From Felis catus (lineage: Eukaryota), in the NCBI RefSeq assembly GCF_018350175.1, contig NC_058380.1, positions 91,512,001-91,576,000 of the forward strand: a stretch of 64,000 nucleotides of DNA, written 5' to 3'. A model generated the notes under the pieces. That model saw only the letters and a program-made list of their open reading frames with translations. It did not search any database and was not told the origin of the DNA. The position numbers were made by a program, and so were the translations under genes. Positions 1 through 22,815 of this stretch are shown piece after piece (the stretch's first letter is position 1; each line of letters begins with the position of its first letter).

Positions 1-470
1 TGGCGTCCAGTCCTGGGCATGCGTGAGGGGCCAGATCAGCAGAGCCACTCCCTGCCCAAGGCCACAAAGGGAAGGTGAGTCACCTGTCCCCGTGCCAAGA
101 CTGTCCCTGGCCAGCACGACCCCAGTCTCTGCCCAGGTCCGGCCTGTCTAGCACTGGCACAGGCCAAGGCTGGGGTCCCGCGCTCTGGCTGCAGCCTGAG
201 AACCCGGGGCCCCAAGCCAGGCTGATTGGGGAGCAGCCAGTTAGCTGCCCCACACACTGTCCCCGGACTGTCACTGTGGCAACCAGCATGGTGACAATGA
301 CTGTTGATCATGTCATACCACCCCAGGGGTGTGGTCACCCCATGGTCACCGAATGCCACACCACAATCATTGCACAGTCCCTGTCCCCATCCCCACATCC
401 CTGTGTCCCTGTCCCCGTGTCCCCATCCCCATGCCCTGTCCTTGTCCCGTGCCCCGCTCCTTGTGGTCCT
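1..470 (-). repeat. Inverted duplicate of DPP7 upstream region (copy of 22721-23190); continues beyond the window start
   Basis: Reverse complement aligns without gaps to 22721-23190 (x maps to 23191-x). About 8 substitutions by eye, at 5, 49, 158, 267, 313, 420, 434 and 448. Mirror ORFs 75..680(+) and 22142..23116(-) share their N-terminal sequence. Confidence 0.95.
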
Positions 471-1759
471 CGTGGCCTAGCCCTCCAGCCCCCCAGTGCC
501 CACCACCTACCCCCACCCACCCCCCACGCACAGCCTGCACCCCTAAAACTGAATTCTCTCAATCTCCCTTGGAGGCCTTGGCTCCTCGGCCAGGGCTACG
601 GTTGGTTCAGGCTGCTGAATTTTAGGTCTTTTCCCCAACAACCAGTGGGACCAACTCCAGTGGCCGCACGTGGTGGCTAATTGGTCTGAAATATAAGCAG
701 GCGGGGAGCACCGTCCCCAACCAGCTTGCCAGTAGCTTCTGACAGATCTTGGTGCTCACGGACCTCCCGCGCTCTCTGGAGGGAGACACAGACTCCACGT
801 ACGGGGCCACGGTCCCCACGCTGCACCCCTGCGGCCCCACCGAGGCTGGGGAAGACCCGCTGGCCCCGGCCCCTAGCCCTGCTGCTCCGGGCCCCGGTGC
901 CTGCTGCTCTCCCCTCCGGAAAGCAGCACGGGGCACCTCCCCGCCCGCTGACGCGAAGGGCGGCGTGGAATGCAGCCTGCCGCTCCGCCAGGCCGCCTGC
1001 TCCCACGCCCTCACGCTGCGGCGACACCCCCACGGAAGCCGGTTTCCCCAGGGCAAGGATGTCACCAGGGCGGTGGGTTCAGAGCCCGCTGACTCCTCCA
1101 GTGGCTTGTAGTGGACTAGCGGAGGGTGGACGTGTGTCCCCGGTGTGTCCCCGCACCCGGACCTGGGCGTGGCGGCGGGGTCGGGGCCAGGCCCAAAGCC
1201 CAGAGGAGGACTCTGCTCCCACCCGCGCTGTGCCAGCCCTTCGCAGACCTCAGAACCGAACCGCGTGCCTTCCGACGCTTCTCCCAGCTGCTCCGCTGGC
1301 AAGCAGAGGGCCCGGGACAGAGGAGGGCCAGCCAAGGCGGGGGCCCAGGTCCGGGGTCCTGCCCACAGCTGCTGCTCCTCACTGCCACAGCCCAACGACC
1401 GGGCAGCCTCTTTCCTACACCAGCTGGGGAAGCTACTGAAACGGCCTGTTTTTAAAGACCCCGTTTATTGTAAAAGAATTACAGCCGCGCGTAAAGTTTC
1501 AAACACGGCCCAGAGATCGGGGGCACAAGAGCCTTCGGAAAGGCTTTTCCACAGGATTGAAGCACGTCCCCAAACCAGGAACACGGGTGGAGCCCTAGGT
1601 CACTGCTCACAGGTGCGCGCTGCTGTGCACACTGCACTCAAGAGGCAGGACGGGCCCCTCAGCACAAAACTGTCCCTCCCCAGACCACCGATAAGGAAGC
1701 CACGGACTTCTGAGAGGCTGCCAAACTCTTTGATTTCCCGCAGAACGTGGCGGATTCCC

Positions 1760-1765
1760 AATAAA
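1760..1765 (+). terminator. Duplicated copy of the putative UAP1L1 poly(A) signal AATAAA (no UAP1L1 CDS upstream here)
   Basis: Mirror of 41965-41970; lies in the UAP1L1 3' region carried by the left arm. Confidence 0.5.
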
Positions 1766-2249
1766 CGCAAGATGCCGTGATTGATCCCTGGCCTGGCGAG
1801 CGCAGTTTCTGACCGGCACGGGTGCTGGGAACGGCAACCAGGGGTTCCCAGCTCCGTGCATCCAAGAGAGCAAGAGTCCACACGCTGAGCCCGCACCTGC
1901 TCTGGGCGGCCCAGGAGTCCCCTCGAGCTCCCACCCAGCTCTTCGCCAGGGTCTCAGGGAGGCCAGGGACCACCTAGTGAGTCTGACACCCTGGGGCGGA
2001 GGGAGAACCACCCCACCCCGGCTAGGTCTCCCAGGGGTGGGCTCCCGCGCCCTCAGCTGGAGAGCCCGGTGATCCACCCTCCAGATACCACCTTCTCCCT
2101 GCTGTCGGCATGTGCAGGGACGGACGCACGAGGGCACCGCTGGCACTACCGGCAGAGCCCTGTGTGGGGAAAAGACCCGCAGGGGCATCGGGGATGACCC
2201 CCGCTAGGGAAGGGGGGGGGCGGAGAGCAGGAGGCGCTTTCTGGGGCAG

Positions 2250-3450
2250 CTTCAGACAAGCCAGGGAGGCGCACACGCCGGGGAGCCCGCCACACACCCC
2301 TAAGTGCGGCGGCCGGGACTGCGGGAGGCGGCGGGCTCACCCGAGGGGGCCGGCAAGGAGCGGGGACGGCCCTCGGCGCTGCGGGGCTCGCTCCGCCCTG
2401 CCGCGTGTCTACTGAGGGGAAACGCGCGCACAACTCGCCGCGGCGGTCGTCCGCGCGCCCCCAAGCCCATCGGCTCCAAAGAGCGGACACCGACAGCCGC
2501 CCCGCCTCGACTCGGGCTCGCACCGGACCCGCTGTCCTCTCGCTGAGCTGCGGCCCCCACTAGCTCTGGGCCGGGAAGTCCGCCCGGGGCCGGGAGTCGA
2601 GCCCCGGAGCGGGGGCGCGGGGCGCCGGACGTCCTGCCAACACCACGGAGCCGGCCGGTCCCGGGGACGCGGCGCTCAGCCGAGTCCCAGGCTCTGCGCC
2701 GGCGGGCTGCGCGCAGGCGCGGGCGGGCAAGCGCCTCACGGCGCAGGTGCGGCCGTGCGCCGACGCGGCGGGACGTAAACACGCACGCAGAGGGCCACGA
2801 GGGCGGGCGCAGGCGCGGTGGGGAATAGGAGGGCGCGGCGCAGGCGCATTGGCCGCGCGCGCGATGGGCGGGGTGTGGACGGCGCTGCGATGGCTGCCCG
2901 CGGGTGTCGGACCAGCGAAGCCCCCGGCGCCTCTCAGAGCCCGGCCTCCTGACGCCGCCAGTGGGCGGGGTCGCCCGGGCCGCCGCCACCGCTGTCATGT
3001 ATCCGCCGCCGCCGCCGGCGCCACATCGGGACTTCATCTCGGTGACGCTGAGCCTTGGCCAGAGCTACGACGGCAGCAAAAGCTGGCGGCGGCGCTCGTG
3101 CTGGAGGGTGAGGGTCGGCGCCGGGCCGGGGTCCCGCGGCCCGCCCGCCGTCCCCTGCCTGGAGCGCGGGCGCTCGTCCGGGCCCGGGGAGCGGCGGTCG
3201 CCGGCCGCAGGCCGTCTTTACAGCCCGCGCTCGGCGGGGCGGGGTCGGGGAGGGGGGAAGCTGTAGGCTGCCCCTCGGTGCGGTGGGTCAGGAGCCCCGC
3301 GGTCTCGGGCTGCAGGGCATCGACACCCCCACGTCGGGGCAGATGCGGGGTCCCGCCGGCTGCCTGAGACGGAACACGCGCGTCGCGCGAGCCTCTCCCC
3401 GCTGCCCCTGCGATAGGACACGTATGGCTTCTGCGTCTGTTGTTTATTTC
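2250..3450 (+). promoter_or_regulatory. CpG-island promoter of MAN1B1 copy 1
   Basis: Very CpG-dense. Three GCGCAGGCGC NRF1-type motifs (2711-2720, 2807-2816, 2838-2847), a reverse CCAAT (ATTGG 2848-2852) and GC boxes precede exon 1. Limits approximate. Confidence 0.75.
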
Positions 3451-6400
3451 CGTTCCCCTATACCGTCTGGAATATCCCCGCGGCTCGTCAGTCTCTGCCG
3501 CCGGGGCGCTTCCCCCGGTTCAGAAACCGGACCTTGGGAGTTACCCACTGTCCTCCCTGAATTTGCAGCGGTCGCACGGGTCCCAGCTGTGTTGTTTTCC
3601 GTCCCGTAGAAATGGAAGCAGCTGTCGAGACTACAGCGCAACGTGATCCTTTTCTTCCTCACGTTTCTCGTGCTCTGCGGGCTCCTGTCCTACATCAGCG
3701 TGGCTGACCAGTGGAGAGGTACCGGCTGCGCGTGTGCCTCATCCCCATGCGTGTGCGTCACCCACTGCGGGTGGCTGGGCAGAAGCGGTCTGGCCGTGCG
3801 CCTTAAGCGCCTGGAGCGTCTGCGAATTGGCGAGAAGCGCAGACGAAAAGGAGCGGAGAGTGTCTTTCGCCACCCTGCTAGAACGTGGCTCGAGTCAATG
3901 TGATGTTGCCCGCCCGCTTCCTGGGTGTCCGGTGTAAGGGCCGGCCTCTCCGTTCTCTGTGCCTCACGGAGACGTTCGGGTCCTGAGGTCGCGTGCCCCG
4001 TCCAGACACGCTCCCTGAACTTCCTCACACGTGTTACCGTGTGTTCCGAGCGGCCCGGGCAGTCTGGGTGAGGGCGTAGGGAACCCCTGTGGGGGAGGAA
4101 AGCTCAGGAGCTGCTGCGGGCGGCTGGAGACAGCTGCACATAGGCCGGGGTCTGCGCTTCCTGGAAGGGAAGCCGCTGAGGGGAGGTCCGTGTGGGCTGG
4201 GCTGCAGGACAGAAGCTGCCAAGTGCTTTGAGGAAGGTTTGGTTACCCTTGGCCGTTCTTGAGTTGGTTTAAAGGACCTTCCCCAGGTCTCACGGTGTCC
4301 TCTCGTGGTGAGGAGCGCCCGCCTAGACGCGTTCCTCCACGCGCTCGCTCGGGCTCTCCTTGGGGCTGTGCGGCACGTTTGGGATAAAACCTGTTCTCTC
4401 GTTTAGCCGTGGATGGCAGGTCAGCAGAAGAGCGGAAGGCGAGACCAGCAGATCCGCCCGTCTTGCCGGCTCCTCAGAAGGCAGATGCTAATCCAGAAAA
4501 CTCGCCGGGGCTTTTACCCCAGGTGTGTTCAGTGAACTACACGTGGGGTTGCGACCGGGGTCGGTCGGTCCCACGGGCGTTTCAGAACCGCGCGTGATGT
4601 TCCACACGGACGGGGGAAGCAGTTCTTTCCCTTGTTGTTTGTCTGATGTTCGCGCCCTGCGCCCCTTATTCTGAGCCAGTAGGATGACGCTTGGGGCAAG
4701 GAGGAGGAATGTTCTTTCCTCCCTTCCCCTTGGATACCTGCTGGGGAGCGAAACAGACCCGCCCCTTGTCTGGAGGAGCGGCAGGCCGGCGGGAGCAGGC
4801 CGGTGGGTGGCCCGTGGTGTCCATCCCGGGAGGAAAATGGCAGTCGCCTCCAGGGATGAGGCTGGGGACGGGACGCTGGACGGCGGTGTGAGACTGGGCC
4901 GCCGCTGGTCCTGGGTGGAGTCGGGAGAGCAGGGCTCGAGTCCAGTGACGTTGCCCGAGGCAGGGGGAGCTGGGCTTGTTCAGGGAGCTGCAGTTTCAGA
5001 GGGCGTGGGCGTGGGCGGGGAAGGGGGCTGGGGTCGGGCCCCACGGGGAGCGGCCAGGAGGCCTCTCTGCAAACCGTCTTACTCGGAGGCTGTGTGTCAA
5101 ACGGCTCCCGTCCTCCCTCGTGGAGCCGACACGCACGTCTCTCGCTCCTCTTGGCCGCTCTCGTGCACCTGGGCTCTCGTGACGGCGATGGGAGCAGAGC
5201 CCGCCTGCACGGTTGCCCGCCGAAAGACACGCTTCCGTTGCTCGGGAGGCCCGTGATCCCGTCTGGGGTGGCGGCCGGGGTCGGTGTGCACGGCTCCCCG
5301 GGTCCGGGCCTCGGGGCGCGGGGCCCCTTGTGGCGGGGCCGCTGGGACCTTTTCTGCTGCTCGGACTGCGGCACTTGTGCCCCAGGCCTGGGTCAGCCCC
5401 GGTGCTTTGTGTGCGGCCAGATCCCATCCTCTTGGCCGCGGGGGTCCCGGCTCCGTGGCACTGGCGTCTTTCCAACGAGGACCCCTTCACGGGTCCTGTG
5501 GGTACTGAGCGGCAGAGATGTGTTCGATCCCCGAGTCGGCCTCCTTGCTGTGTCCTGCGGAGGAGGGGCCTCCTCCTGCCCTCTGCTGACGACGGGCTAC
5601 GCCTGGGCCCCTGCGCTCCGTCCCTGGACCCGGTGCCCTGGCCACCCGGTTCTGAGCACAAAGGGTGGGAGTCCTGGGGCACAGGCCCGGGACAGTGTTC
5701 TTTGCGCCTCCATCCACGGGGACGTGGCCCTGACCCTTTATTGCTACCTTTAGGGCCTGTGACGGCCCGGAACCCTCCCGGGCCAGGATGCCAACCCACT
5801 GCCCAGGGCCGCGCCGGCCCGTTGGCACAGTCTCCGTCCCGGTTGGTCAGGGCCCGGAGATCGTGAGAAAGGATCTTCTGGCCAAATCTGCGTGTTGCCG
5901 TGGGAGCGGGAAGGCATCTCCTCCGGGGGCCGTGCGCCACCAGCCATTCCACGCGGCCCGTGGGGTTGGGTCTGATAGGGAGAGCATCCCAGGTGGAAAC
6001 GGAGTGGCAGCTCCTGGGCCGTTGAACTGTTTTCACGAGTGGCTCTTGTTTCGATCTAGAAGCCTCAGAGGCATTTCCGACGGGGACCGCCCAACCTGCA
6101 GATTAGAGCCCCCGACAAAGACTCCAAGGACCGGAGGCAGGATGACACGAGGCGGAGGGACGAGGTGGTGGGCGACGCTCGTCAGGAAGAGAGCACGCAG
6201 AGGACGGTGGTCAGGTACAGGGAGCGTCAGAGACGAGGCAGCACGGGTCGCTGGATGCGCAGAGGCCGGTCCGTTTGACGTTTCCTGAAAAACGAAGGGG
6301 TAGGATCGGCGCGCTGTCTGAAGCGGCTTCTCCTCCCAGAGCAGACAGTGGAGAGAGCGGGACCCCGGTGGGGGCGGGGCCCTGCCTTCTCCGCGTCGTG

Positions 6401-9400
6401 CCGCATGGAGCGGAGGGCCGCCACGGGCCCAGCCAGGCTGTGACCGCGGGCGTTTGCATCTCTGCCCTCAAGCCGGCTGACTCCTCTTCCTCCTCTCCCT
6501 GAAGCTGGAGGGGTGCGGTGATCGAGCCGGAGCAGGGCACCGAACCCCCTTCGAGAAAGGCAGAGGGCCCCCCCACCAAGCCTTCCTCACAGGCCGCCGG
6601 GATTCAGAACCAACCAGGTAAGGCCCCGCCTGCGCCCCGTCGGGCCTCGCCCGGACATGGTGACGGAGAGGGCGCGTGGACACCCAGCTGGGCACCCGGG
6701 CGGGCCCCAGCTCTCTGTAGAGCCTTGGGGAGGGCACGGGGCTCCACGGCGGCCCGCGGTCCCAGGCCCGTCGCGGCAGCCACAGGCCGCCTGTGCGGGA
6801 ACTGCCCGCGTCCGTGCCAGCGCGGGGCCTGGGGAGAGTGGAGACACGGCCCCGGCTCGGTGGGGTCCTGGGGTCCTGCGTTCTGGCACCGGTAGTGGAG
6901 GGCCCTCGGGGCACTGGCGCTTTGTACGCTCCGTGCGGCCTGTCTGCTTTGGTTCTCGTGGCGGCCTTTGAGGTCATCGGTCTGTCGTAGGCCCGTTCCA
7001 CGGACGGGAGAGCCGAGGTTAGGCCGGCAGCGGCCACGGCCATTTGCCTCCCGGAGCGGGGGCTCGCGCCGGGTCAGCTGAGCCTGGGGCCCAGGCTGTG
7101 ATCCTCCAGTCCTGTCGCTGTTGCCACTGAGGGGAGGAGGAGGAGGAAGGAGCCCGGAGCCGGGACGGGCGGCCCGGGCGTGTGGGGGGAGGCAGAGCGG
7201 TCGCGGGGCTCTGAGGACCGATGTCAAAGCCGCAGATGCCAACACGACTGGGCCTCAGGCCGCACCGAGAGGACACGTGCCGCGAAGCCGCCGACGCCCA
7301 CGTTTCTGTCCGCCTGGGGGCCCTGTCACTCGTGCCTGGTCCTCCGACGTGTGGAGGGGAGAAACCTTCTCGGTCGGCGTCGAGGCCACCCTGGAAGGGC
7401 CCCAGGGCGGCCTTGGGTGTGTCTGCCACACGCTGTTCCCTCCCCGAAAACACCCAGAGCTGCTGAGGCACGCACGACGTGGGCACCTGTGAGATGAGGC
7501 GCTCTCGTGGAGGTCACCGGAGCCCGCCCGCCACGTCTGATGCTCCCCCGGCCGGATTGCACAGCGCGGCTGCCGTGGCGGAGCGGCAGGCACCGGTCTG
7601 CTGCCTCAAACACCTCCGCCCGCTGCGCGTTCCCCGCAGCTCCAGAGGGTCGTGCCCGCCGGGCGTCTGGTGGAGGCGGACGGGCGCAGGCCAGGCGGAT
7701 GAGAGGCCGAGCCGTCGCGTGTGGACCCTGGAGGCCTCGCCACCTTGGCAGCCGCGTCCAGCCGTGCGGCTCCGAGCCCGGCGGCGCCGCGCCCCGACCT
7801 TCGGGGTCGTCCGCTGCCGCCCTGCGGCCCCGGACGGTGTCCCCCCACCCCACTGAGCGCCCCGCGGCTTGGGGCTGCAGAGGGGCGGTGTCTGAACCCT
7901 GGGCGGTTCCGGTCCCCACGACCCGCCGTCTTCCTCCCAGCCTCCCCGAACGAGCGTCAGAGGGCCGTGATAGACGCCTTCCGCCACGCGTGGACCGGCT
8001 ACCGCAAGTTCGCCTGGGGCCACGACGAGCTGAAACCCGTGTCCAGGTCCTTCAGCGAGTGGTTTGGCCTGGGACTTACGCTGATTGACGCCCTGGACAC
8101 CATGTGGATTTTGGGTCTGAAAAAAGGTACCTGCTCGTCCCCGAGCACGCGGCCAAGTTCCCCCGGTGGAACGCCTGGGCGCGCGAGGGAGCGAGCCGTG
8201 CCCTGGAGGGTGTAGACGCCACTGTTTCCGTCTGAGGAGCTCTCCCTTCCCCTGGGTGGCAGGCAGTCGCTTTGTCCCTTGATGGCAGGCGTCCCGGGGA
8301 CGCTCAGGGCAGTCGCCCCCTCGGCTCCCGGCCGAAGGCCTGGGCTGGCGTCCGGGGGCAGTTCCAGCCCGTGCTCCCGTCCTAGCCGGAAAGGGGCTCC
8401 CTGGTGGGAGGCGGCACGTGATCCGATAAGGCCATCGGCGTCCCGGGTCTCTCCATCACACTCTTCTCAGGCCACGTGGACGGGGTGTGGTTGAGGCTAC
8501 GGGTCTTTGGGTACTTCCGAATCGGTCTCTCGGAGTCCGTTTCCGGTGTTCCGTAGAGGCCAGAGGCTCCCCCTGAGTTACTCACGTGGCCCTTTGTGCC
8601 GTGGCCGTTACCCGTCAGCGTTGGTGCTCACGACGGCACGCTGGCTGCCCGTCCTCCGGGTGCAGGGGGCTCCGCGGTGTGTCCCCTTGCCGTGAGAAGT
8701 GATGGCGAGGCCCCTCGGGAGAGAGAGACACGAGGACACACGTGGCCCCAGAGCCAGCGAGCGGTCACGGGGGCGCCGGGACCTGTAACCTACTGCCGCT
8801 CCCACCCCGTCTCCCGTCGCAGAGTTTGAAGAAGCCCGCAAGTGGGTGTCTAAGAAGCTCCGGTTTCAGAAAGACGTGGACGTCAACCTGTTCGAGAGCA
8901 CGATCCGGATCCTGGGCGGCCTTCTGAGCGCCTACCACCTGTCCGGGGACGACCTCTTCCTGAGGAAGGCCGTGAGTGTCCGGGCGCCGGCGGAGGTTCC
9001 GCGGCTCGAGGGGCCCCCGGGGGGTGGGGGCGGGGGTCTGTTCCGGGACTCCCGTCTCCCCGGTCGTCTGGGTCTCGCTCCCGCGCACGTGCGTGGGAAG
9101 GTCCCCGTCACCGTCGCGACCCGTGGGGAAGTGCTCTCGGGGCTCCTCGGTCTCGCCGCTGTTGAGCGCCGAGGCCACGTGAAGCCAGTGAGGTCCCGTG
9201 TCCACTTACGGGGGTGAGCACGGGTGGCGGGGTGGCGGGGGTGGGGCGGGAGGGTGGGCGTCGTGGAACGGAGCCGAGGCTGCCGTGTGACGGGAAACCT
9301 CGGTCCTCGTCGTGTCGCGTCATCAGGAAGACTTTGGGAATCGGCTGCTGCCTGCGTTCCAGACGCCCTCCAGGATCCCATACTCGGACGTGAACATCGG

Positions 9401-12400
9401 CACCGGAGCCGCCCACCCGCCCCGCTGGACCTCGGACAGCACGGTGGCCGAGGTCACGAGCATTCAGCTGGAGTTCCGAGAGCTCTCCCGCCTCACGGGG
9501 AGTAAGAAGTTTCAGGTACGGGGGGCCGGCCTGCCGGCCGGAGGCGTCACACCAAGCGGAGGCGTGCGTGGACTTGACCCCGGGCCGCGGGACCACCGTC
9601 CTGTGTGCTTTCCGGTCCCTCGTTCCTCGCCTTTCCTCAGCTGCGCGGGCGGGAAGGGCGTCGACCGGGGGCTGAGTCCGAGCGCGGGCCCGTGTCCTTG
9701 GGGTCCCAACTGCCCCCTGCCTCGTGCTGTGGTGGCCCTCGGGGGTGGTCCGTGGCGGGAGCGAGGCAGGGGCCCACGGTCGTGGGTTTCGGCCTCGCTA
9801 GCCCGTCGCTGACGGTCCTCGTGGACCTCGCTCCTGACCCTCGCCCCGACCCCGTTGGCCGGGGTCCCTCTCCTCGTGGGTGAGTCTCCAGCACGCGGCG
9901 GACCCTCTGGACTTGGCGCTCTGCCTCGTCACTCTTCCTGAAAAACCTGAGCTGCGATTTGAACGTCAGGAAGTTTTGCCTCTTGGCTTGAACATCGCGC
10001 CACAGTCCCACGTGGGCAGCGGCTGCCACCGTCTGATTCCAGAACCAGGTCCTCGCCTCAGGAAGTAGGCCAGCGCACCCTAGCGCTCCCACCCGGGCCC
10101 CCTGCCTCGGTGGCCGCAAATCCACTGGTCGTGCGTGGCTTTCTCTGTTTGGAATGCTCGGCGTGAGTGAGGTCCTACGTACGGCGTGGGCCGTCTGTGG
10201 CCGGTTCTGTCGCCACGCGTGACGTCTTCGTCCGCGCTGGAAGCGTCCGGGAGAAGCGCACCCGTGTCGTAGCACGTGTCCGAAGCATCCCTTTTCGTGG
10301 CCCGGCGGTCTGCCATCGTGCGGTCGGACCACGTGCCGTCCGGGCTCTCGTGCGTTGAGGAGCAGCTGGGTTGTTTCCCACGCGGGGGTGGTAAGAGCGG
10401 CGCTCCCGGGAGAAGGTTCCAGGCGCACGCGGGGCTCTGGCTTTTCCGCGGCAGCCCGCGCTTGTCCTCCGGTCTTTCTCGGTAGCCTTCGCGGTGGGCA
10501 CGTGAGGGTGCCTCCTCTGGGCCGTGGATTTTGTCCTGATGACGTGTGGCGTTTTCCAAACGCCCACAGGCCCCGTGTTCATCTCCCGGGTGGAGGTGGG
10601 CGTCCGGGTGCCTGTCTGCTTGTCGGCGGATTAGCGGCTTTCCTGTCGTTGGCTCGTGCTCCGGAAGCTCAGCGTCTCTCCGTTTGCTCTGAGACGCCGG
10701 CCGGGCGCCGTTGCGATGCCGGATCCCTGTAGCTGCTGGAGACCCAAGGGAAATTGAAGCCGCCCCTGCCTCAGAGGACTTTGTAAAAGGGGGCGGGCGT
10801 CCGTGGCGGGTGGAGGCCAGGAAGTCACTCCCCAGGCAGGGTCCCGAGCGCCGTGAGCAAACGCGCACAGGGCCATGGAGCACAGATGCGTGGCGCTACC
10901 CGGGAGGAGCTGAGGTTGGTTGGGTCTCGAAGGATGAACAGGATCGGCGGGCGGGTGTGCCGCGACCGCGGGCCCGGAAGCAGACGCGCCTGCCTTCCCT
11001 CCAGCGAGCGGGAGCAGACGGCCATGCCTGGGCAGGAGGTCCCGGGGACCGCGGCTGTGGCCTTCAGACACGGTCCCCTGCCAGGAAGAGGAGCTCAGCC
11101 CCGTGTTCGGGGCCCTCGGCATCTGCCCGCTCATCGAGGCAGCCGCGTGTGAGGGTGGGGACCTGGTTGCCGCGTGGCCGGGGCCACCCTCAGGAGCCCT
11201 TGCCCGGTGCAGCCGGGCAGGGGAGCGCCGTGGGCCGGGACACCGGCCTCTTCCGTCCTCGTCCTCTTCCGTCCTCCGCTGGGAACGGGCCCGCCTGTCA
11301 CGGAGGAGGGGTGAGCCGACGAGGCCCGCCTTCCTCGGCTGGCCCGAGGTCCGGCAGCCCCGTCCCCCTGGCTCACCCGCACTCTCCCCTTGTGTGTGTG
11401 TGTGTGTGTGTCCCAGGAGGCCGCGGAGGAGGTGACGAGGCGTGTGCACTCCCTGTCGGGGAAGAAGGACGGGCTGGTGCCCATGTTCATCAACACGCAC
11501 AGCGGCCTCTTCACTCACATGGGAGTGTTCACTCTGGGCGCCAGGGCCGACAGCTACTACGAGTACCTGTTGAAGCAGTGGATCCAGGGCGGAAAGAAGG
11601 AGACGCAGTGAGGCCTGTTTCTGCTGCCTCGGGGACGGGGTCCCCGAGGCTCCCCTTGTCCCGAGTTCTCGGTCGGGAGGCAGCGGCCGTGCCGGACCCG
11701 GACTCGGCCCCTCCGCGGGGGATGTGTCTCTTCCCGGCACGGCCTTCGTGCCAGAGAGGACGCCTGGCTGGTCACGGAGGTCCCCGGCCCCTCTGCGCCA
11801 GGCAGGGCCTGGGGTCTGGGCCCGGCCGAGGGGCCCCCGGCTCACCGGCCGAGCTCTCGTCCTCGGGGTTGTGGAGGCGGCTCCGCTTGTCCGCTCCCCA
11901 GCAGAAGGTGGCCGGGGGCCCCTGGGCCTCCCCGCGCTGCCGGGTTGACGCTTCAGACGTGCGCTTTCCCAGACGGCAGTGCCTCGGGGAGCCTCGTCGT
12001 GCGGTCGGGAAAACACAGGTCACTCTAGCGAAGGGACTGGAAATCCTTGAAGTCTCACGCCAGGGGGTGACCACGACCCAGGACCGCTGGGGGTGGGCAG
12101 CTCCAGGAGGCCGACCGCTACGGGCAGAGATCAGGGCATCACGCCTGGGGAGCCGGAGTTCCCCACGCCTGAACGTGGGGACGTTGAGAGAACCCTGGTG
12201 GGCACGTGGGGTCCCGGGTGGTCCACGGGGGCCGGCTGAGAGGGACGACCCTGTTCGGGGGAGCGGCGGGCACAGCCCCGTGTGTGCCCCAGGCCGCCGA
12301 CTGCCACGAGCCTGCATCTCCAGGCTGGCGTGGTGCCACCTGGTGCCACCAGGCCTCTAGGCCGCCAGCGTGGGGATGGCAGCTCGTGGCCACGTGCCCG

Positions 12401-14854
12401 CTCCTGGGTAACCGGGCAGGGGGTCGGGCCGCGCACCCACCTGGCCTGAGCCCACGGGGCCTGCCGGTTCACAGGTTACTGGAAGACTACCTCGAAGCCG
12501 TCGAGGGAATCAAAAGGCACCTGCTGCGCAGGTCTGAGCCCAGGAAGCTCACCTTTGTGGGGGAGCTGGCCCACGGCCGCTTCAGCGCCAAGATGGTGAG
12601 CACGGTCGTGATGCAGGTGGGGCGTAGGGGGCGGCACCCACCCGTTTTTCTGGGCCCCCGATGGCTTCGCGAGTCTGGACGTTGGAGAGATGGCTCAGAT
12701 TCTGGTCGTGGGGCGTGAGCCCTCACAGGTCGACGATGGACCGCGCGGCGGTGTGCGGCAAGGGGGGCTGGGGTCTGTGATGGGTCCCTGGCCCCTCCCC
12801 CGGGGTGCCGCTCCCGTCCCCCGGGGACCCTGTGCCTTCCCCAGGACCCCCCNNNNNNNNNNNNNNNNNNNNNNNNNNNNNNNNNNNNNNNNNNNNNNNN
12901 NNNNNNNNNNNNNNNNNNNNNNNNNNNNNNNNNNNNNNNNNNNNNNNNNNNNNNNNNNNNNNNNNNNNNNNNNNNNNNNNNNNNNNNNNNNNNNNNNNNN
13001 NNNNNNNNNNNNNNNNNNNNNNNNNNNNNNNNNNNNNNNNNNNNNNNNNNNNNNNNNNNNNNNNNNNNNNNNNNNNNNNNNNNNNNNNNNNNNNNNNNNN
13101 NNNNNNNNNNCCCTGCCCCCTGCCCTCTGCCCTCTGCCTTGGGTCTAGTTACTTGTCCCCTGCCCCTGGTACTCCATCAGTGTTTGTGGGGTCAGGGCCA
13201 GACCCGGGTCAGCATCCACTCCCCTGGCAGGCGGGTGTCGTCCACCACCCTCCCCCCTGCCCATGTGGAGCTCCAGGGGCCGGGCCCGTAGTGGAGTCGC
13301 TTTCCACGTTCCTGCCCTTGTGGGCCCTGAGGAGTCCCCGTTCAGGCCCGTCGACCCCTGGGGATGCGGAGGGCCTGAGGGAGCGCTGGACCCTGCACCC
13401 GGTGTGGCCCCCGCCCGTGCCCCACGTGGCCACCGACTCACAGTGGTGAGGAAACCGCTCTGGTTTCAGGACCACCTGGTGTGCTTCCTGCCAGGGACGC
13501 TGGCTCTGGGCGCCCACCACGGCCTGCCCGCCGACCACATGGAGCTGGCCCGGGCGCTCATGGACACCTGCTACCAGATGAACCGCCAGATGGAGACGGG
13601 GCTGAGCCCCGAAATCGTGCACTTCAACCTGTACCCCCAGAGCGACCGCAAGGACGTGCAGGTCAAGGTGAGCCGGGCTGGGGTCTGGCGTGGGGGCGCC
13701 CTGCGGGCTCGGCCTAGCTCCTCCCGTGTCCCCCCACCCCAGCCGGCCGAGCTCAGCCCGTGTTGTGTCCCCCATCCCTCCCTCCCCCCTCCCCCCTCCC
13801 CCGCCCAGCCGGCCGACAGGCACAACTTGCTGCGGCCCGAGACGGTGGAGAGTCTGTTCTACCTGCACCGCCTCACGGGAGAGCGCAAGTACCAGGACTG
13901 GGGCTGGGAGATCCTGCAGAGCTTCAACAAGTACACGCGGGTGAGCGCCTGCCCTGCCCAGCCCTGAGTCCCTCTCCCCTAGCCGGGGCAGCCAGAGGGG
14001 GCCGGGGGCGGGGGTGGTGCAGGCTCGCCGCGGCCTCGGGAGTTCGGCGCCACGTGCCCCGGGGTCTCGGGGACCAGGCTCTGTGGCCCCGTGTGCACAG
14101 GGCGACTCTCCTCCCGGATCCTCCGTGTGGCCCCGGGCAGCCCTTTCCCACCCCAGACGGCGCCGTGACCGTGGCCCCGACACCCGTCTCGCGGTCTGGG
14201 CCGGGGCTCGGAGGTCACGCCGTGTCCGGGGCCCGCCACCCACCCCGGCAGAGCGCGAGCGCCAAAACCCGACCCGCGTATGCCCTGTGGCGGCCGGGCA
14301 GTGGGTGGGTCCCGGCCGCCTCAGGTGCTCGGGGGCCTTCGGGAGGCCGCCTCCGGGTTCCGGAGCACGGGCTGCACGTCGGGTCACGTGAGGGCGGCTG
14401 GCGTCTCTGAGGGGGGCCGTCTGGAGGAGCTGCGGCTGAGCTCCCGGGGGGCCGGTCCCCCGGCGGACCTTGGGGTCGTCTGCCTCAGACCCGGCCCTTG
14501 GCCACGGGTGCCGCCGCGGTGAGGCGCAGGGGCCCCGGCCGGGGGCCCTGCGGCCGCCGGCGCCCCCGAGGGCTGAGCCCGGCGTGGGGAGCTGGCTGGG
14601 CCTGCAGCCGTGGTGACGCCGCGGTCTCCGCTCTCGTGCAGGTCCCCTCGGGTGGCTATTCTTCCATCAGCAACGTCCAGGATCCCCTCAATCCCCAGCC
14701 CCGGGACAAGATGGAGAGCTTCTTTCTGGGGGAGACGCTCAAGTACCTGTACCTGCTCTTCTCCGACGACCCGGCCCTGCTCAGCCTGGACGCCTACGTG
14801 TTCAACACTGAGGCTCACCCCTTGCCCATCTGGGCCCCGCCTAGGGTGGGGTGA
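2997..14854 (+). CDS. MAN1B1: ER mannosyl-oligosaccharide 1,2-alpha-mannosidase (GH47), extra inverted copy; 13 coding exons, about 660 aa
   Basis: Exons 2997-3107, 3610-3718, 4407-4522, 6060-6214, 6505-6617, 7941-8126, 8823-8971, 9327-9515, 11417-11607, 12475-12595, 13470-13667, 13809-13940, 14642-14854. All introns GT-AG and phases consistent (1983 nt). Peptides: [20 protein letters not shown] segment [100 protein letters not shown]. Confidence 0.95.
11391..11410 (+). repeat. (TG)10 microsatellite abutting the MAN1B1 exon 9 acceptor (mirror 32320-32339)
   Basis: Read directly: (TG)10 followed by TCCCAG|GAG. Confidence 0.9.
12853..13110. other. N run (258 nt) in MAN1B1 copy 1 intron 10
   Basis: Run of n within a C-rich low-complexity tract. 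Confidence 0.99.
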
Positions 14855-15541
14855 CCCCCCCCGTGGGCACTGCCCGGGGGCCTCACACGTCTTGCGTCTG
14901 TGGGTACCTGTCCTCGGAACCCTGGCCTTGGGTAGGTTCGCTCTCTCGACCTTGGCCGCGGCGTGTCCCCTCGGCCGACTGTCCGTGCTCCAGGGTCAGG
15001 CTGATGACATTCCCCAGGGGGTTACCGAGCCTGACATCTCAGGGCCTCAGAGGTGGTCAGGGCAGCTGGGCGCCCGGTGCTTTGCCGCTGGCTTTGCACT
15101 TCTGGCTTGTGGTTCTCATGACGCCGGACGGCGTCGTGAGGTCAGCGCCGTGAATCCCCGAGGCCCCACCTGCTGGGGACCTTCCTGCTTGAATCACGAC
15201 TTACATTCCTGATCCCCAAACGTCTTCTGTGTGGCCCCAGTGTCTCTGCTTGTCCCCTGGGGCCGCTCTGGGTCTCCTGGACCCACACATGTTCTGAGAT
15301 GAGCTGAAGGGACAGCCCGACATGCGGTTCAGCCCGGGGTCTCAGAGTCTGTGAATGTGCCCTGACCCGGGAGTCCTGGGGGGGGCACTTGTGACCTCCT
15401 GCGAATCCGGGCACCTGGCCGGCTGTGGTGTTTACATGTTGGACTCAGGGATCCTCCCCCGGCCCTGCAGGGGTGGGGAGGGGCGGGTGGACAAGTTCAT
15501 CCTGCTCCTGGACCACCCGACAGAACGGACTTTCCAGGCAG

Positions 15542-15547
15542 CATAAA
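15542..15547 (+). terminator. Putative variant poly(A) signal CATAAA of MAN1B1 copy 1
   Basis: About 690 nt after the stop codon; no AATAAA seen in the 3'UTR. The context resembles my recollection of the human MAN1B1 mRNA end (GATAAAAGTTGATTTGC). Confidence 0.55.
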
Positions 15548-17465
15548 CGTGGATTGTTTCCTCTGTTGGTAAGCAGGTCCTTTACTGTGAAACGTCTTTG
15601 CGTAGTTGAGAGCAAGCCATCGTTGGTTTGGGGCGCTTCTGACTGCAGTGCACAGGGGTGTCAGGTTTCCAGCCCGATAATCCTGCCGTCCTCCATACAT
15701 AAGTCAGCACATACGCACCTTACCTGTCGTTGGACGAGATAACGCATCTCGGGGTGGGAGCGGAAGGTGTGCTTCGCGGCCTGTCCCGAACACAGACCCA
15801 CAGCAAACAGAGCCAGCGAGCGCCACACCCAAGTTCTTTCGTCAGCTTCTGTGTATTTCGTGAAAGACAGAAGGTCACAAAATGCAAAATCGGATACCTT
15901 GGAAAGGTCAGCGTAGAGAAAAGATTTCTGTAGCGAGGCAGAGCGGCCACATCCACCTCCCATTCTCCCCAGAAACAAAACAGCAGTAGAACCGTCGCGG
16001 TCAGTTTTGACAACAGCCAATGAACCATGAGGAAAAAAGGAAGTGTGGCTCCATGAAAGGAACAAAATTAGTTGCTAAAAACTGTCACTAAAGACAGTCC
16101 AGCCTTGTGAATTATTAGAAAAGGACTAATAAAACTAAATTAAACGTTCTCAACTTGAACACACACATGGAAGTAGGGGAAATTGGGGAAATACTACGAG
16201 CACACTGAGATTACCAGAGAAATTACCAGAGGGAATAATTATTAAAAATTATCTTCCGTTGAAATGTGCAGCGATTGAGAGATTCATCAGAGTTCAGTAG
16301 CCACAGCAGCGAGGAGACCACAGAATGTGAGCCGTGGACAGAGCCCGAGGGACAGGTCCCACCCTCCGCAGGCCCCACAAGTCTGTTAGAGTTGGGGTCT
16401 CGGGCACAAGGGGATTTGAAACAGTGCTGAACGCTTACCAAATGTGATGTTCTAAGATGTAAATTACAAATTCAAGAAGGTCAGACACTTCCTAGTAGAA
16501 TCAACACAAGATGACCTGGGATAAGTGGGAGAGTCTTGACCGCCGTGAGCGGTGACCTGTGACGTGCAGACCCACGGCAAGGCCAGCCGCCCAGTGAGGG
16601 AGAAAAAAGGCCAGAAGATGGGAATGGAATGACGCTTTGATGAGAAAAGTTGTCACCCTGGAGTTCCATGTACAGCAAAAGTGAGTCAGAAATGGAGAAT
16701 TCTAGGTATCTCCAGGGGAAAGCCGGATAGCTTGTCGCCAGGTGGCCTGACGTGCATGAAATGCTCCAAGGACTCTGGGCGGAACTGCTGCCGGATGGGA
16801 ACTCGGGGCTCTGTTAAGACGCGGCTGGGATGCGTCAAATCAGTTACGTGTTTGGCTGCCACTCCTGTTTTTATTCTCCAGGATTTAAAAGCTGTTCATG
16901 GGAGATAATTACAAGTTTATGTTTTGGGGCCCATGGTGTGCAGCGTGTTTTGAGAGTAGCTACAGAAACAGACTGGTCTGAGCTGTCTCGGAGATAGGTC
17001 GTGTATGTTAGTGAACACAGTTGCTGTATGTGTGGACCAGATTGTTAGAAATTCGGGATGTCACCCATGATAGCCACGATGAAATTATCAAAAAGATACA
17101 CGTGGGTGGAAAGGAGAAGAGAGTGAGAATGGTTCACCGAAGTTTTTTAAAAAAAAGTCCTTGGAAGAAATGAGGGACGAAAAAGGATTAACGTATAGAA
17201 AACACGTGCAAAGTGGTAGAAAGAAGTCTTATTGGTAATTACGTAAAATAAAATGGATGAAACCCTTCGGTCAAAACCAGAGCTTGGCAGAATGGACTAA
17301 AACACAGTGACCCAAGTACGTACTGTCTAGCAGAGACCATGCTTCCAAAGATACAAATAGACTGAAGGCAAAAGCAGGGGGGAGACACTCCATGGAACAG
17401 TGACCCAAAGAGAGCTGGGATGGCTTTGTGAAGGCCAGACGAAATAGGCTTTAATTCAAACACGG

Positions 17466-17659
17466 GGGGTGCCTGGGTGGCTCAGTGGGTCGAGCACCCA
17501 ACTCTTGATTTCATCTCAGGTCATGATCCCAGGGTCGTGGGGTGGAGTCCTGCATCGGGCCCCACGCCGAGCATAGTGCCTGCTGGGATTCTCTTTCTAC
17601 CTCTCTGCCCTCTCCGTTGCTTGCACACGGTGTCTTTCAAATAAAAATTAAAAAAAAAC
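17466..17659 (+). mobile_element. Can-SINE (tRNA-derived carnivore SINE)
   Basis: GGGGTGCCTGGGTGGCTCAG head, CT-rich body, AATAAA and A tail. Confidence 0.85.
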
Positions 17660-18027
17660 TTTTAAGAGGTCAACGTAGATGCAGCTTGCTTTGTTTGTAT
17701 TCAGTGAAAACAAGATTTTTCCACGGGGAAGAAAAGACAGGGTTATAAAGAAGGTAGAACAGTCACAAATGCATCAACAGCAGAGTCAAATGAAATAGCC
17801 GGGTCTCCAGTGGCAGTTGGAGACTTCGTTAGTCCCCTTCAAGATGCACAGACCCGCTAGGGGAAGACCAGCGAGGAAACCGAGGACAGGAACAGGGCTA
17901 CAAACTAGGCAGACCCAACAGACGAGAGCGCCCCCGACAACAGAGTGTCCCTGCTCCTCGAGGGCACATGGAGCATTCTCCACTGTCTACCTTAGGCCAC
18001 GAAACAAGTATTAATGCATTTTATTTA

Positions 18028-18234
18028 AGTTTTTTTTGTTTGTTTGTTTGTTTTTTTTTTTTTTTTTTTTGAGAGCAAGCACAAGCCGGGGAGAGCGGCA
18101 GAAGGAGAAGGAAAGAATCTTTAGCAGGGTGCATGCTCAGTGTAGAGCCTGACACTGGGCTCAATCCCACAACCGTGAGATCATGTCCTGAGCTCAAATA
18201 GACACTCAACTGACTGAGCCCCCCAGGTGCCCCT
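18028..18234 (-). mobile_element. Can-SINE
   Basis: Poly-T at the left end and reverse head CTGAGCCCCCCAGGTGCCCC at the right end. Confidence 0.85.
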
Positions 18235-18244
18235 AAAGATTTTA

Positions 18245-18335
18245 CTTTTATGTAAACTTTATACCCAACATGGGGCTCGAACCCACAACCCCAGGATCCA
18301 GACTTGCACATTCCATCAACTGAGTCAGGCACCCC
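18245..18335 (-). mobile_element. Short Can-SINE
   Basis: GGGGCTCGAACCCACAACCCCAGGATC...CTGAGTCAGGCACCCC. Confidence 0.75.
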
Positions 18336-18360
18336 AGTGTATTTTAAATGATTGAAAGAG

Positions 18361-18552
18361 GGGGGGCCTGGCTGGCTCAGTCGGTTGAGCGTCCGACCTC
18401 AGCTCAGGTCAAGATCTCACTGCTCGTGGGTTCGATCCCCTCATCGGGCTCTGTGCTGACAGCTCAGAGCCTGGAGCCTGCTTCCGACTCTGTGTCTCCC
18501 TCTCTCTCTGCCCCTCCCCTGCTCATGCTCTGTCTCCCAAATATAAATAAAC
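18361..18552 (+). mobile_element. Can-SINE, feline SINEC_Fc-like
   Basis: Head, then GACAGCTCAGAGCCTGGAGCCTGCTTC, a (CT)n stretch and an AATAAA tail. Confidence 0.9.
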
Positions 18553-18715
18553 ACAATCAATTGGTCAGTGGAGAAGTCAGAAAGGAAGTTAAACACTTTT
18601 GAGACCTATGAAATTGAAAGCACAAAGTACACAATTTATGGGATGCAGGGAAGGCTGTGCTCAGATCAAAATCCATAGCTTTGAATGCCTACATTAAAAA
18701 AAATTAAAAACGTAC

Positions 18716-18817
18716 GAGGCGCCCAGCTGGCTTAGTCGGTAGAACACACAGCTCCTTATCGGGGCCGTGAGTTTGAGCCCTGTGTTGGGTGTAGAGCCTA
18801 CTTTAAAAATAATAATA
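18716..18817 (+). mobile_element. Short Can-SINE
   Basis: GGCGCCCAGCTGGCTTAGTCGGTAGAAC...GGGTGTAGAGCCTACTTTAAAAA. Confidence 0.75.
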
Positions 18818-18820
18818 TAG

Positions 18821-19038
18821 AGGTGCCTGGGGGGCTCAGTCGGTTGGGCACCTGATTTCGGCTCAGGTCATGGTCTTGCGGTTTATGGGTTCAAGCCCCG
18901 CGTCGGGCTCTGTAGTGACAGCTCAGAGCCTGGAGCCTGCTTCAGATTCTGTGTCTCTCCCTGCCCCTTCCCCGCTCACACTCTGTTTCTCTCTCTCAAA
19001 AAATAAACATTAAAAAAATTTTTTTAATAAAAATAAAA
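18821..19038 (+). mobile_element. Can-SINE, feline SINEC_Fc-like
   Basis: Head, GACAGCTCAGAGCCTGGAGCCTG, CT stretch and A-rich tail. Confidence 0.9.
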
Positions 19039-19530
19039 GGAGGAAAGATCTCCAGTTAGTACCTAACTATGTACCTTGAAGAACTAGGAAAGGAAGAGCA
19101 GACTAAACCCAAGCTTGCAGTATGAAGGAAATGTGCAGAATGGAGAGAAGTAAAATAGAGAAGAGAAAAGCACCAGAGACGGTCCACAAAACCAAAAGCT
19201 GGTTCTTTGAAAGCATCAACAAAATTGAATCTCTGAGCTACACTAACAAGGTGAATGTCCAATAGCTAGAACCAGAAACAGAAGTGGGGGCGTCACCAGT
19301 GGTCTTACAGAAAAATTTCACACCATCAAATCTGACGGTCTTTTTAAGATGGCAAGTTCCCAGACAGGCAAGAATGATCTAAACTCAAGATGATCTATAA
19401 ATTTTCGACAGACCTAGGACAAATAGATGGATCCAATAGTAAAAAAAGAGACAACAACAAAACCCTCCCAACAAAGAGAAGCCTGGGGTCATGTGGCTTC
19501 TGGGGAATTCAGCCAAACATTTTCAAAGTT

Positions 19531-19628
19531 GGGGCACTTTGCTGGCTCAGTCTGTGGAGCGTGCAACTCTTGATCTTGGGGTTGAGTTCGAGCCCCACAT
19601 AGAGTGTAGAGATCACTTAAAAATCTTA
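19531..19628 (+). mobile_element. Short Can-SINE followed by a (CA)n tract
   Basis: GGGGCACTTTGCTGGCTCAGTC...GAGTTCGAGCCCCAC...GTAGAGATCACTTAAAA. Confidence 0.75.
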
Positions 19629-20496
19629 CACACACACAAACACACACATTTTAAGAGTTAACCCCAGTCCTTCTCAAACTCTCAGAAAATTGAGAGGAGG
19701 GAAAACTTCCTAAATCATTCTGTAAACCCAAAATTACCTTGATATCAAAAGCAGATACAGACATTTCAGTAAAAGACTACAGGCCAATATTCCTTGTGAA
19801 TATTAATGCAAAAATCCTTAGCAAGATACAAATCTGGCAGTATGTTTAAAGATTCTACACCATGATCAAGGTGTTTCAATATAAGGAGATCAGTCATCCA
19901 CACAACACAATACACAGGAATGAGCTGTGGATACAAGCAACAACTTGCATGGACCTCAAGGACATCGTGCTGAATGAAAGAAGGCACAGGCCAGGGGGAA
20001 AAAGAAACAATAATACACTCCATTCACAAAGCACAGTGGAGAAAATACACGATAACTGCAATTGACATAGAGCACGTGACAAAAGCCAACACTCTTTCAT
20101 GGTAGAAACACTCATGAAACCGTAGGTAGGAGGGAACTTCCTCAACACAATAAAGGGTAATCATGGAAAGACGCACAGCCAACATCACACTCAACAGTGA
20201 GAGACGAAGCTTTTCCTCTAAGACCGGATATAAGACAGGACTACCTGCTTCCACCGCCACTAGAAATAAAAGGCATTCAGACTGGAACTGAAGAAGTGAA
20301 ACTCTATTTGCACATGATATGATCCTGTGTATAGAAAATCCCAAAGAATTCACAAGAACATGACTAGAGCTAATAAATTCAGGAAAGTTGCAAGGCACTA
20401 GATCAGCAATCAAAACGTTATGTTCCTGTGCACCTGCAGTGAACAATCTGAAAAGGGAATTAAGAAAGCACTTCCATCGAAAATAACATTAGGGCT

Positions 20497-20597
20497 GGGA
20501 CGCTTGGCTGCCTCAGTCTGTGGAGCATTTGGCTCTTGATCTTGGGGTTGTGAGTTCCAGCCCCACGTTGGGCACAGAGCTTACTTTAAAATAAAAA
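20497..20597 (+). mobile_element. Short Can-SINE
   Basis: GGGACGCTTGGCTGCCTCAGTC...GAGTTCCAGCCCCACGTTGGG...TACTTTAAAATAAAAA. Confidence 0.75.
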
Positions 20598-20724
20598 CAC
20601 CATCGAAAAGAATAAATAGGGATACATTTAAGGATGTAATGTACACCAAAAAGTATAAAACATTGCTAAAATAAAGAAGATCTACATAAGTGGAAACGTC
20701 CTTTGTTCATGCATAGGAATACTT

Positions 20725-20937
20725 TATTTTTTATTTTTTCAATGTTTATTTTAGAGAGAGAGAGAGACAGAGCATGAGCGGGGGAGGGGCATAGAGAGAG
20801 GGAGACACAGAATCCGAAGCAGGCTCTGGGCCCTGAGCTGTCAGCAGAGCCCAATGCGGGGCTCGAACTCACAAACCGTGAGATCATGACCTAAGCCGAA
20901 GTCGGACACCTAACCAACTGAGCCCCCCAGGCACCCC
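20725..20937 (-). mobile_element. Can-SINE (SINEC_Fc-like) with target-site duplication
   Basis: Full-length reverse SINE flanked by AGGAATACTT at 20715-20724 and 20938-20947. Confidence 0.92.
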
Positions 20938-22319
20938 AGGAATACTTAATTTTAAGACGTCAATGCTAGACAAAAATCTATAGGTTCAGTGCCATCCGTC
21001 TTAGAATTCCAACAGCCTTTTTTGCCAAAATGGAAAATGAATTCTCAGATTAATGTGGAATTGCAAGGAGCCGCAAATAGCCAAGATATTCTTGAAAAAG
21101 AACAAAGTTGGACGACACGGACTGCCCGATTTAAAAACTTACAACGAAGGCATGGTACTCCGAGCAGTGTGGTGCTGGTGTAGTGACAGACACGTGGTTG
21201 TCACTGAAGGGAGAGCCCAGAAATGAACACATACACGGATGGCCGACTGATGTTCTGCGAGGGTATGTAGGTTTACTCAGTGGGGAAAAGAACCTTGTCC
21301 TCAACAAATGGTGATGGGAAGACTGGATTTCCACATGCAAAGAATGGAGCTGGACCTTACTTCCCACCACATACAAAACACCAACTAAAAATCGATCAGC
21401 AACCCAAAGAGCGAAACCATCCGGCGCCTAGAAACAGCAGCAACAGCAATACGGAGACAGGTCTGCACCCAGCGGGCCTCACAGGGCTTCTCACGCCACA
21501 ATCCAGAAGCACAAGCACCAGCCAAGTAGGACTTGGTCAAAAGCTGCGCATCAAAGGACGCGGAGTGCACAGAACCAAAGCCCACAGAACGGGAGAAAGT
21601 ATTTGCAAACAACGTATCTGATAAGGAATTTATATCTAGAATACGTTTTTTTAAATGTCCAGAACAATAAAAAAGTAATGCTCAACAACAGATAAAAGCA
21701 CCTTTCTGACACGAAAGGGGGCTCAGCGTGTAGCGTGTATAACTGAGCGTGCACACAAATGTGGCCCCGACCTCACGTGCAGCTCGCTCAGACCCAGATC
21801 ACGGGCACCTGTGCGGGGTTCCCTGTCGTCCACACCCGCTGCTCTGCTGCTTGCAGGTTCGAGGGCTGAAGGGCAGAGCAGGTGGGGGAGACAGGGCCTG
21901 TCTCCCCAGATCTATGGGCTGTGGAGGCGGGAATCAAGACCCAGCTTTGGCCCCAAAGCCACTGTCCCCCCTCCCCAGGGAGTCGGAAGAAGGGCTTCTG
22001 GGCCCCCAGACGTACCCGCAAGCTCCGGGCCACCAGGTGAGGCAGGACAGTCAGAATCGGAATCCCCTTCTGGGCCTTACCGGTGCTGCCTGGAGGGTTT
22101 GGAGGGAAGGATATGCTGGGTCTGCAGCCGGGGTAGGAGGGTCAGGCAGCCGAGCTGAGAGGGGAGGACGAGAGGAGGGCCTGCCTGGGGAGAGGCTGCC
22201 ATCCAGGGGGAAGGAGCCGTGAGCCCTTCTGTCCTGTCCTGGCTTCTACCCTGCAGAGGCCATGGAGACCCTGCGAGGGCAGCTCTCTACTCAACGCAGG
22301 ACAGGCAGCCCTGGGTGCG

Positions 22320-22815
22320 GGTCCCGGGACACAGGAACAGGGACACGGGGAGACGGGGACATGGGAGCTTGGGGGCATAGACACAGGATGGGGACAGGGG
22401 GACACAGGGAGAGGGACATGGCACAGGGACACAGGGACTGGGACACGGGATAGGGACACAGGGACGGGGACAGGGGCACAATGATGGGCAAGTAGGGACA
22501 CGACACGGGGACGTGGAGACACAGGGACGGGGACATGGGGTCCCAGGGACCCAGGGGCGGGGACAGGGGATGGGGCCACAGGGACGGGGACAGGGAAACA
22601 ATGGTGGGCAAATAGGGCTAGGGACACGGGGACATGAGGGACACAGGGAAAGAGGGACAGAGACACAGGGATGGGGACACAGGGGTATAGGGACAGAGGG
22701 ACATGGGGATGTGGGAACGCAGGACCACAAGGAGCGGGGCACAGGACAAGGACAGGACATGGGGATGGGGGCACGGGGACAGGGACACAGGGATGTGGGG
22801 ATGGGGACAGGGACT
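22320..22815 (+). repeat. Degenerate G-rich minisatellite (GGGGACA / GGGACACAG units) upstream of DPP7
   Basis: Dozens of imperfect GGGACA, GGGGACATGG and GGGACACAGGG units; produces PVPVSL-type pseudo-ORFs. Confidence 0.9.

Follow-up and report, generated by a model that had tools for sequence, protein, structure and literature searches.

Two near-identical, inverted MAN1B1 genes around a single DPP7 in the cat: a pair probably ancient and probably kept alike by gene conversion, beside a diverged and probably younger copy

The stretch of Felis catus DNA analysed here (64,000 nucleotides of contig NC_058380.1, positions 91,512,001 to 91,576,000, hereafter the window) is a palindrome, in which two intact, inverted 15-kb copies of MAN1B1 stand head-to-head around a single DPP7. 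We consider it probable that this MAN1B1 pair is ancient and has been kept near-identical by arm-to-arm conversion, and that a short diverged block at its edge (X), together with its counterpart in the spacer (X'), is a separate, younger copy that escapes conversion. Flanks of 120 kb upstream and 80 kb downstream were added to the window from the cat genome (G000); negative positions lie upstream of the window. The features are as follows.

1..473, minus strand: X, an inverted non-coding copy of X', extending 125 bp upstream of the window
474..15555, plus strand: arm M1, the extra MAN1B1 copy, carrying a CpG-island promoter and, duplicated, the presumed UAP1L1 3' UTR; both ends sharp
597, plus strand: arm difference, T against C at 43133, upstream of the promoter
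2997..14854, plus strand: coding span of MAN1B1 copy 1, 13 exons, 660 aa, intact, identical to database protein P0004
7102, plus strand: arm difference, T against C at 36628, in intron 5
9739, plus strand: arm difference, T against C at 33991, in intron 8
15556..28175, no strand: spacer (12.6 kb), with an old L1 fragment and SINEs (about 15.7 to 21.7 kb), a low-complexity tract, X' and DPP7
22717..23316, plus strand: X', the counterpart of X in the spacer; its end lies 665 bp before the DPP7 ATG
23982..27250 (end approximate), plus strand: DPP7, presumably, as named from sequence and synteny; single copy in the cat genome
28176..43256, minus strand: arm M2, MAN1B1, 99.98% identical to M1
28877..40733, minus strand: coding span of MAN1B1 copy 2, exons identical to copy 1
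41965..48513, minus strand: UAP1L1, with its stop codon at 43651 and its first AATAAA at 41965, within arm M2

In self-alignment the window showed two inverted matches apart from each other: 474-15555 pairs with 43256-28176, and 1-473 pairs with 23190-22717. When the arms were compared base by base, leaving out one N-masked stretch per arm, they differed by 3 substitutions in 14,824 comparable bases (0.020%), and their spans by 1 base. All three substitutions are non-coding, with T in M1 and C in M2, exactly as the original prediction had counted them by eye; its statement that a (TG)10 repeat has the same length in both arms was likewise confirmed, and four homopolymers are also equal in length. 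P0004, labelled Felis catus in the protein database, equals the 660-aa product of both copies. Each arm end has exactly two matches in the cat genome, the flanks of M1 are unique on both sides, and the whole has the form of a palindrome, with 15.08-kb inverted arms more than 99% identical around a unique 12.6-kb spacer. The gene order is GRIN1, X, MAN1B1(+), an L1-rich segment, X', DPP7(+), MAN1B1(-), UAP1L1(-), SAPCD2(+). Judging by the human gene order, the MAN1B1 block corresponds to human 9q34 and M2 is the MAN1B1 gene at the human-syntenic position.

Two features of the transcription unit can be noted here. An ATG at 2890 (window 2890-2997, mirrored at 40733-40840) resembles the human MAN1B1 start and is out of frame, with a stop after 20 codons; it marks a short upstream open reading frame, the intact MAN1B1 frame starting at 2997 (MYPPP), as in most non-primate records. 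At the other end, a CATAAA hexamer about 8 bases before the end of M1 (15542-15555) is the sole poly(A)-like signal found in the M1 3' UTR, so that the two copies may be cleaved in different flanking sequence, and since the first AATAAA of UAP1L1 falls within M2, the 3' UTR of that gene likely overlaps the arm.

The second inverted match behaves differently. Window positions 1-470 differ from the reverse complement of 22721-23190 by exactly 8 substitutions (positions 5, 49, 158, 267, 313, 420, 434 and 448), the 1.7% that had been estimated by eye; set against 3 in 14,824 for the arms, this is a contrast in divergence of about 100-fold (Fisher P = 1.1e-10). With the flanks added, the full block spans -125 to 473 against 23316-22717, about 600 bp with 13 substitutions and 1 gap, a divergence of 2.2% (95% CI 1.2-3.7%). 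No homology of X past -125 was found in the 120 kb upstream and 80 kb downstream, nor any unique-sequence homology beyond either end of X/X', and we therefore rejected the idea that X continues the arm or some longer block. The original prediction had read these 470 bp as the DPP7 side of a duplicate and had suggested a diverging DPP7 paralog. Neither idea survives: the block carries no coding sequence and reaches no further than 125 bp upstream of the window, 665 bp separate the copied segment from the DPP7 ATG, and DPP7 has one match in the cat genome, with no second copy in it. A segmental duplication including DPP7 is rejected on the same grounds. What lies upstream is instead a minus-strand gene for an ionotropic glutamate receptor, starting near -9170, which we take from its sequence to be GRIN1.

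How X arose can be read in part from its borders. A GGGACA-type low-complexity tract is continuous with X' (tract 22390-22814) and is interrupted at the right end of X, so the junction at 473 is new and X' is probably the original at that end. X is also off-axis: its partner lies within the spacer, with none beyond 43256, and X is thus not a symmetric continuation of the arm. It adjoins M1 directly, at a near-blunt junction. Its substitutions (9 transitions, 3 of them at CpG, and 4 transversions) look like ordinary, natural mutation, and clustering of the differences along X/X' was not significant (KS P = 0.35, n = 13). The possibility that they are allelic SNPs of one locus, which would have undone the original prediction, was rejected: the flanks of X differ on both sides, and 2.2% is about 10 times cat heterozygosity. 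We slightly favour the view that X was templated as a short copy on the outer margin of M1, at assumed rates some 5-11 million years ago (3-18 million years with the confidence interval), and that it then diverged neutrally; being short, with unlike flanks on both sides, it would escape conversion.

A very unlikely alternative is that X/X' is an old piece of a larger repeat, unconverted since 5-11 million years ago, or the mark that a staggered-break inversion of the L1-rich segment left behind. Inverted duplications at inversion ends are known, as are shifts of arm/spacer borders (in the accessible part of PMC8981503), and old L1 fragments, 59-70% identical, lie either side and face away. Against this stand the asymmetry of X to the arm, the poverty of X and X' in CpG, unlike the arm (CpG o/e 0.28 and 0.19), the end of unique-sequence homology at both borders and the lack of significant clustering. 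The L1 fragments in question (L005 at -5200 to -3900, and 19087-20492) are colinear, inverted and flank M1, and may be independent insertions or relics of ancient arms.

The divergence of X most likely does not date the arms, which appear much older than X/X'; for their age we turned to other species. Protein records from public annotation were gathered in 10 sequence clusters, each listed to a maximum of 15 members, and a double record was taken to be one identical sequence with two records per assembly (differently named or with different isoform numbers) or else two records sharing one contig; the window's own protein, P0004, served as the positive control that a double record means two genes. 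Among the members listed, 11 of 14 felid sets held two MAN1B1 records (Felis, three Prionailurus-type, two lynx-type, Leopardus, lion, leopard, tiger and clouded leopard; two of the 11 were placed by tree and shared sequence), and puma, jaguarundi and snow leopard held one. Seven caniform sets had two among the members listed (dog, dingo, fox, raccoon dog, another canid, European mink and California sea lion), and about 10 other caniform rows had one, four of these being named '-like'. In the hyena the N-terminal part of MAN1B1 is present twice, on separate contigs. The position and orientation of the second copy outside the cat genome are deduced from record numbering: in argali, reindeer and Iriomote cat the two MAN1B1 records are numbered n and n+2, in keeping with a single gene between them.

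Within carnivore species the two records are 0-1 residue apart (0 in felids, 1 in two canid pairs), whereas felid proteins differ by 1-7 residues between species and cat differs from dog at 47 of 659. At the protein level, then, copies group by species in carnivores, which is the pattern that concerted evolution leaves and the within-species clustering that the original prediction had proposed looking for; in ungulates it takes a mosaic form. Trees were drawn as a quick tree and with FastTree on residues 370-655, and distances are inflated by alternative-isoform rows (P0073, P0077 and P0170 among several). The pair is likely older than the cat-dog split, by which we mean tens of millions of years, and we are fairly confident that one duplication in the carnivore ancestor accounts for it. 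An old processed GH47 pseudogene elsewhere in the genome (G000:C21:95516647-95517441, L025) carries in-frame stops and is about 65% alike to MAN1B1 exons 8-13; it was tried as a dated witness for the 3' UTR and rejected, its exons being too dissimilar and the UTR without a match.

The same records bear on whether the near-identity is technical, that is, whether the arms are real but were made alike when cross-mapping reads entered the polishing, or M1 is no true duplicate. The equal microsatellite and homopolymer lengths, and arms close in size to long reads, could be taken that way, but two copies occur in many separate assemblies, M1 has its own unique flanks, and the arms retain three substitutions and a 1-base length difference, as two canid pairs retain a residue. 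Reads would cross-map only between arms already about 99% alike, and polishing cannot account for the residues peculiar to cat that both cat copies carry, nor for those peculiar to dog in both dog copies. An artefact of this kind is therefore highly improbable, although polishing may add to the last 0.1% of arm identity, and 0.02% is accordingly a lower bound; the earlier suggestion of homogenisation by consensus calling keeps that much and leaves the species-specific residues unexplained. Haplotig duplication fails too, with two non-colinear blocks at 2.2% and 0.02% and many other species showing double records.

Outside the carnivores, a further record sharing a contig with the first was found in horse, ass, white rhinoceros, pig, alpaca, camels, cattle, sheep, reindeer, muntjac, a baleen whale and common shrew. 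None was seen among the rows listed for pangolins (10), hippo (4) and moles (3), nor in the 19 rows listed for bats, three of which are named '-like'. For primates, rodents, lagomorphs, elephants and armadillo, none of the 60 rows listed of 200 members is named '-like' (two lemming records among them represent isoforms, and a stray row from sheep fails to align). One afrotherian-like record, P0173, is named '-like' and has no visible partner, so the name alone is no proof of a second copy.

Site patterns in quartets of two species and two copies were used to separate shared duplication from later homogenisation, since sites of the paralog type imply that the duplication predates the split and sites of the species type that the copies were homogenised afterwards. 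The sheep-reindeer quartet gave 29 paralog-type against 21 species-type sites, the former in exons 1, 2, 5 and 7, the latter in other exons with one in exon 2; alpaca-camel gave 14 and 5, horse-ass 7 and 3, and pig-sheep 4 and 102. Across quartets, paralog-type sites are confined to exons 1, 2, 5 and 7, with one at the exon 5/6 border. This distribution indicates, at the level of predicted proteins, that several ungulates share a duplication and then underwent conversion elsewhere in the gene. The cat-dog, horse-dog, horse-sheep, whale-sheep and shrew-alpaca quartets had no paralog-type sites, and between orders independent duplications fit as well as full conversion does; a single origin across orders thus rests on parsimony and not on shared sites. 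Where KRL or QRL is found in ruminant A, hippo and whales, the ruminant B copy still reads KKL, the ancestral form. B-copy exon 1 looks related in camelids, pig and ruminants, a weak resemblance given that these exons are machine-predicted, and the 3-4 paralog-type sites linking pig, camelids and sheep all lie in this poorly aligned, machine-predicted exon.

Several second copies have also changed in structure. The second MAN1B1 of ruminants (P0168, P0102, P0105, P0344, P0345) stands apart in its N-terminal exon, which the records share, and in its stem exon 5, and its catalytic domain remains close to copy A; from its sequence, a functionally diverged ER mannosidase I is possible. Camelid, shrew and two hyena second records (P0241, P0244, P0248, P0335, P0008, P0066) stop matching at the end of exon 6, around cat residue 263, and are near-identical to their own main copy (hyena 151/151, shrew 135/137); in the shrew, the partial copy matches that species' A copy at 98.5% and mole at 61%. 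In horses (P0118, P0120 versus P0116, P0111) the record named MAN1B1 has an altered exon 1 and the 'low quality' record keeps the conserved one, so the official name may sit on the derived copy.

Base composition, which does not depend on annotation, points the same way as the records. In MAN1B1 introns 2-12 CpG o/e reaches 0.785; for 74 GC-matched 2-kb windows from the surrounding 264 kb the median is 0.45 (Mann-Whitney P = 6e-4 on 5 arm windows), and the 5 of 74 control windows that reach 0.70 are, by our reading, mostly near promoters. Arm GC, at 0.69, is only slightly above the 0.62-0.68 of neighbouring genes. A CpG excess in the arms that is absent in X is what long GC-biased conversion would leave, a footprint seen here in the CpG and GC levels of the arms. 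Together with the within-species identity in cats and dogs and the mosaic in ungulates, the CpG excess upholds two claims of the original prediction, that the duplication is real and not a duplicated haplotype and that the MAN1B1 arms evolve in concert. Its use of 1.7% as the sign of an older duplication fared less evenly: the duplication is real, and the 1.7% most likely does not date it.

Closest to that original idea, minus the DPP7 paralog, is a single felid event of about 5-11 million years ago in which template switching copied X and the MAN1B1 arm together, only the long arms being converted later, with dog and ungulate copies of independent origin. We regard this as unlikely. It accommodates the direct, near-blunt junction of X with M1, a divergence of 2.2% that fits the age of the cat radiation, and a cat-dog quartet of 44 species-type and 0 paralog-type sites. 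It also requires the same gene to duplicate repeatedly, in canids, mustelids, sea lion, equids, rhinos, artiodactyls and shrew, although no '-like' name appears in the 60 primate-to-armadillo rows, and it sits poorly with the doubled N-terminal part in hyena and with an arm CpG excess that suggests long conversion.

The history that we prefer, an ancient and converted pair with a younger X, would work as follows. The arms would pair intrachromosomally and convert each other with GC bias, at about 1e-4 per site per generation; this value comes from c = 2 mu/d and a cat mutation rate of about 0.9e-8 per generation. A crossover between the arms would flip the DPP7 spacer. As to origin, we lean towards one duplication in the laurasiatherian ancestor, about 80 million years ago. 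The fuller account, to which we incline slightly, is a single laurasiatherian inverted duplication of MAN1B1 that survives as an autosomal palindrome around DPP7, where carnivores convert the whole gene and flip the spacer by lineage, and ruminants, camelids, pigs and horses let exon 1 (ruminants also exon 5) escape.

Among autosomal gene pairs in concerted evolution, HBA1/HBA2, HSPA1A/B, SIGLEC11/16 and CXCR1/2 resemble the MAN1B1 pair in having paralogs closer within than between species and patchy conversion tracts; unlike in those pairs, conversion here would span 15 kb, including the promoter, all introns and both UTR sides, down to 0.02%. The FLNA-EMD inverted repeats, reportedly associated by Caceres et al. 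(2007) with a recurrent eutherian X inversion, are the nearest analogue: they are a mammal-wide, converted inverted repeat with GC-rich arms and recurrent flipping of the spacer genes. That system is X-linked with its main genes in the spacer, whereas here a full-length essential gene forms the arm, and in ungulates conversion has missed part of one MAN1B1 copy (exon 1, exon 5), or that copy is truncated. Primate X/Y palindromes carry testis genes, where these arms hold a whole housekeeping gene. By the accessible part of PMC8981503, primate palindromes share with the present one inverted multi-kb arms (median identity 99.953%, against 99.98% here), a unique spacer, conversion-level divergence, raised GC/CpG and shifting borders; the conversion rate given for those on the X, 4.5e-5, is near that estimated for the cat arms, and the ages in that study are 25-29 million years, against an apparent age of more than 50 million for the MAN1B1 pair. 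The MAN1B1 pair differs in being autosomal and is not a sex-chromosome ampliconic palindrome, the GRIN1-DPP7-MAN1B1-UAP1L1-SAPCD2 block lying on cat D4 (by the accessible text of PMC13047762).

A published rearrangement may record the flip itself. In the accessible text of PMC13047762, an inversion between cat and tiger at the end of D4 contains UAP1L1, MAN1B1 and DPP7 and is treated as a plain inversion, and that text makes no mention of a MAN1B1 duplication. In an alignment the match of a flipped spacer would run on through both arms, and with the UAP1L1 hexamer inside M2 exactly these three genes would be listed; the event, known here from its gene content and not its breakpoints, fits a spacer flip. 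Our literature search, judged from listings and with subscription papers mostly outside it, found no paper describing the MAN1B1 pair, and the main text of PMC12789764 mentions neither MAN1B1 nor DPP7. The duplicates are already in public annotation as '-like' genes, and a single-haplotype cat comparison and its supplements may already list the duplication.

As a lesson of method, a near-identical duplicate need not be young, and its more diverged neighbour can be the younger copy. The published cat/tiger inversion is recast as a likely palindrome flip and not a species-defining rearrangement. If a single laurasiatherian origin is correct, the pair would be among the oldest autosomal gene-conversion palindromes known in mammals, concealed as '-like' annotations, and escape of exon 1, which encodes the cytosolic tail, would have yielded either a truncated copy or an additional ER mannosidase I whose N-terminus is new. 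The family offers an autosomal, multi-species test case for the duration of arm-to-arm conversion, the rise in CpG and the escape of exons, in which each stage is represented by some lineage, carnivores showing full identity, ruminants mosaics, and camelids and shrew truncation. MAN1B1 is a human intellectual-disability gene; cats and dogs likely carry four identical alleles of it, and short-read variant calling, expression mapping and disease or knockout models of MAN1B1 in these animals would differ from those in human and mouse.
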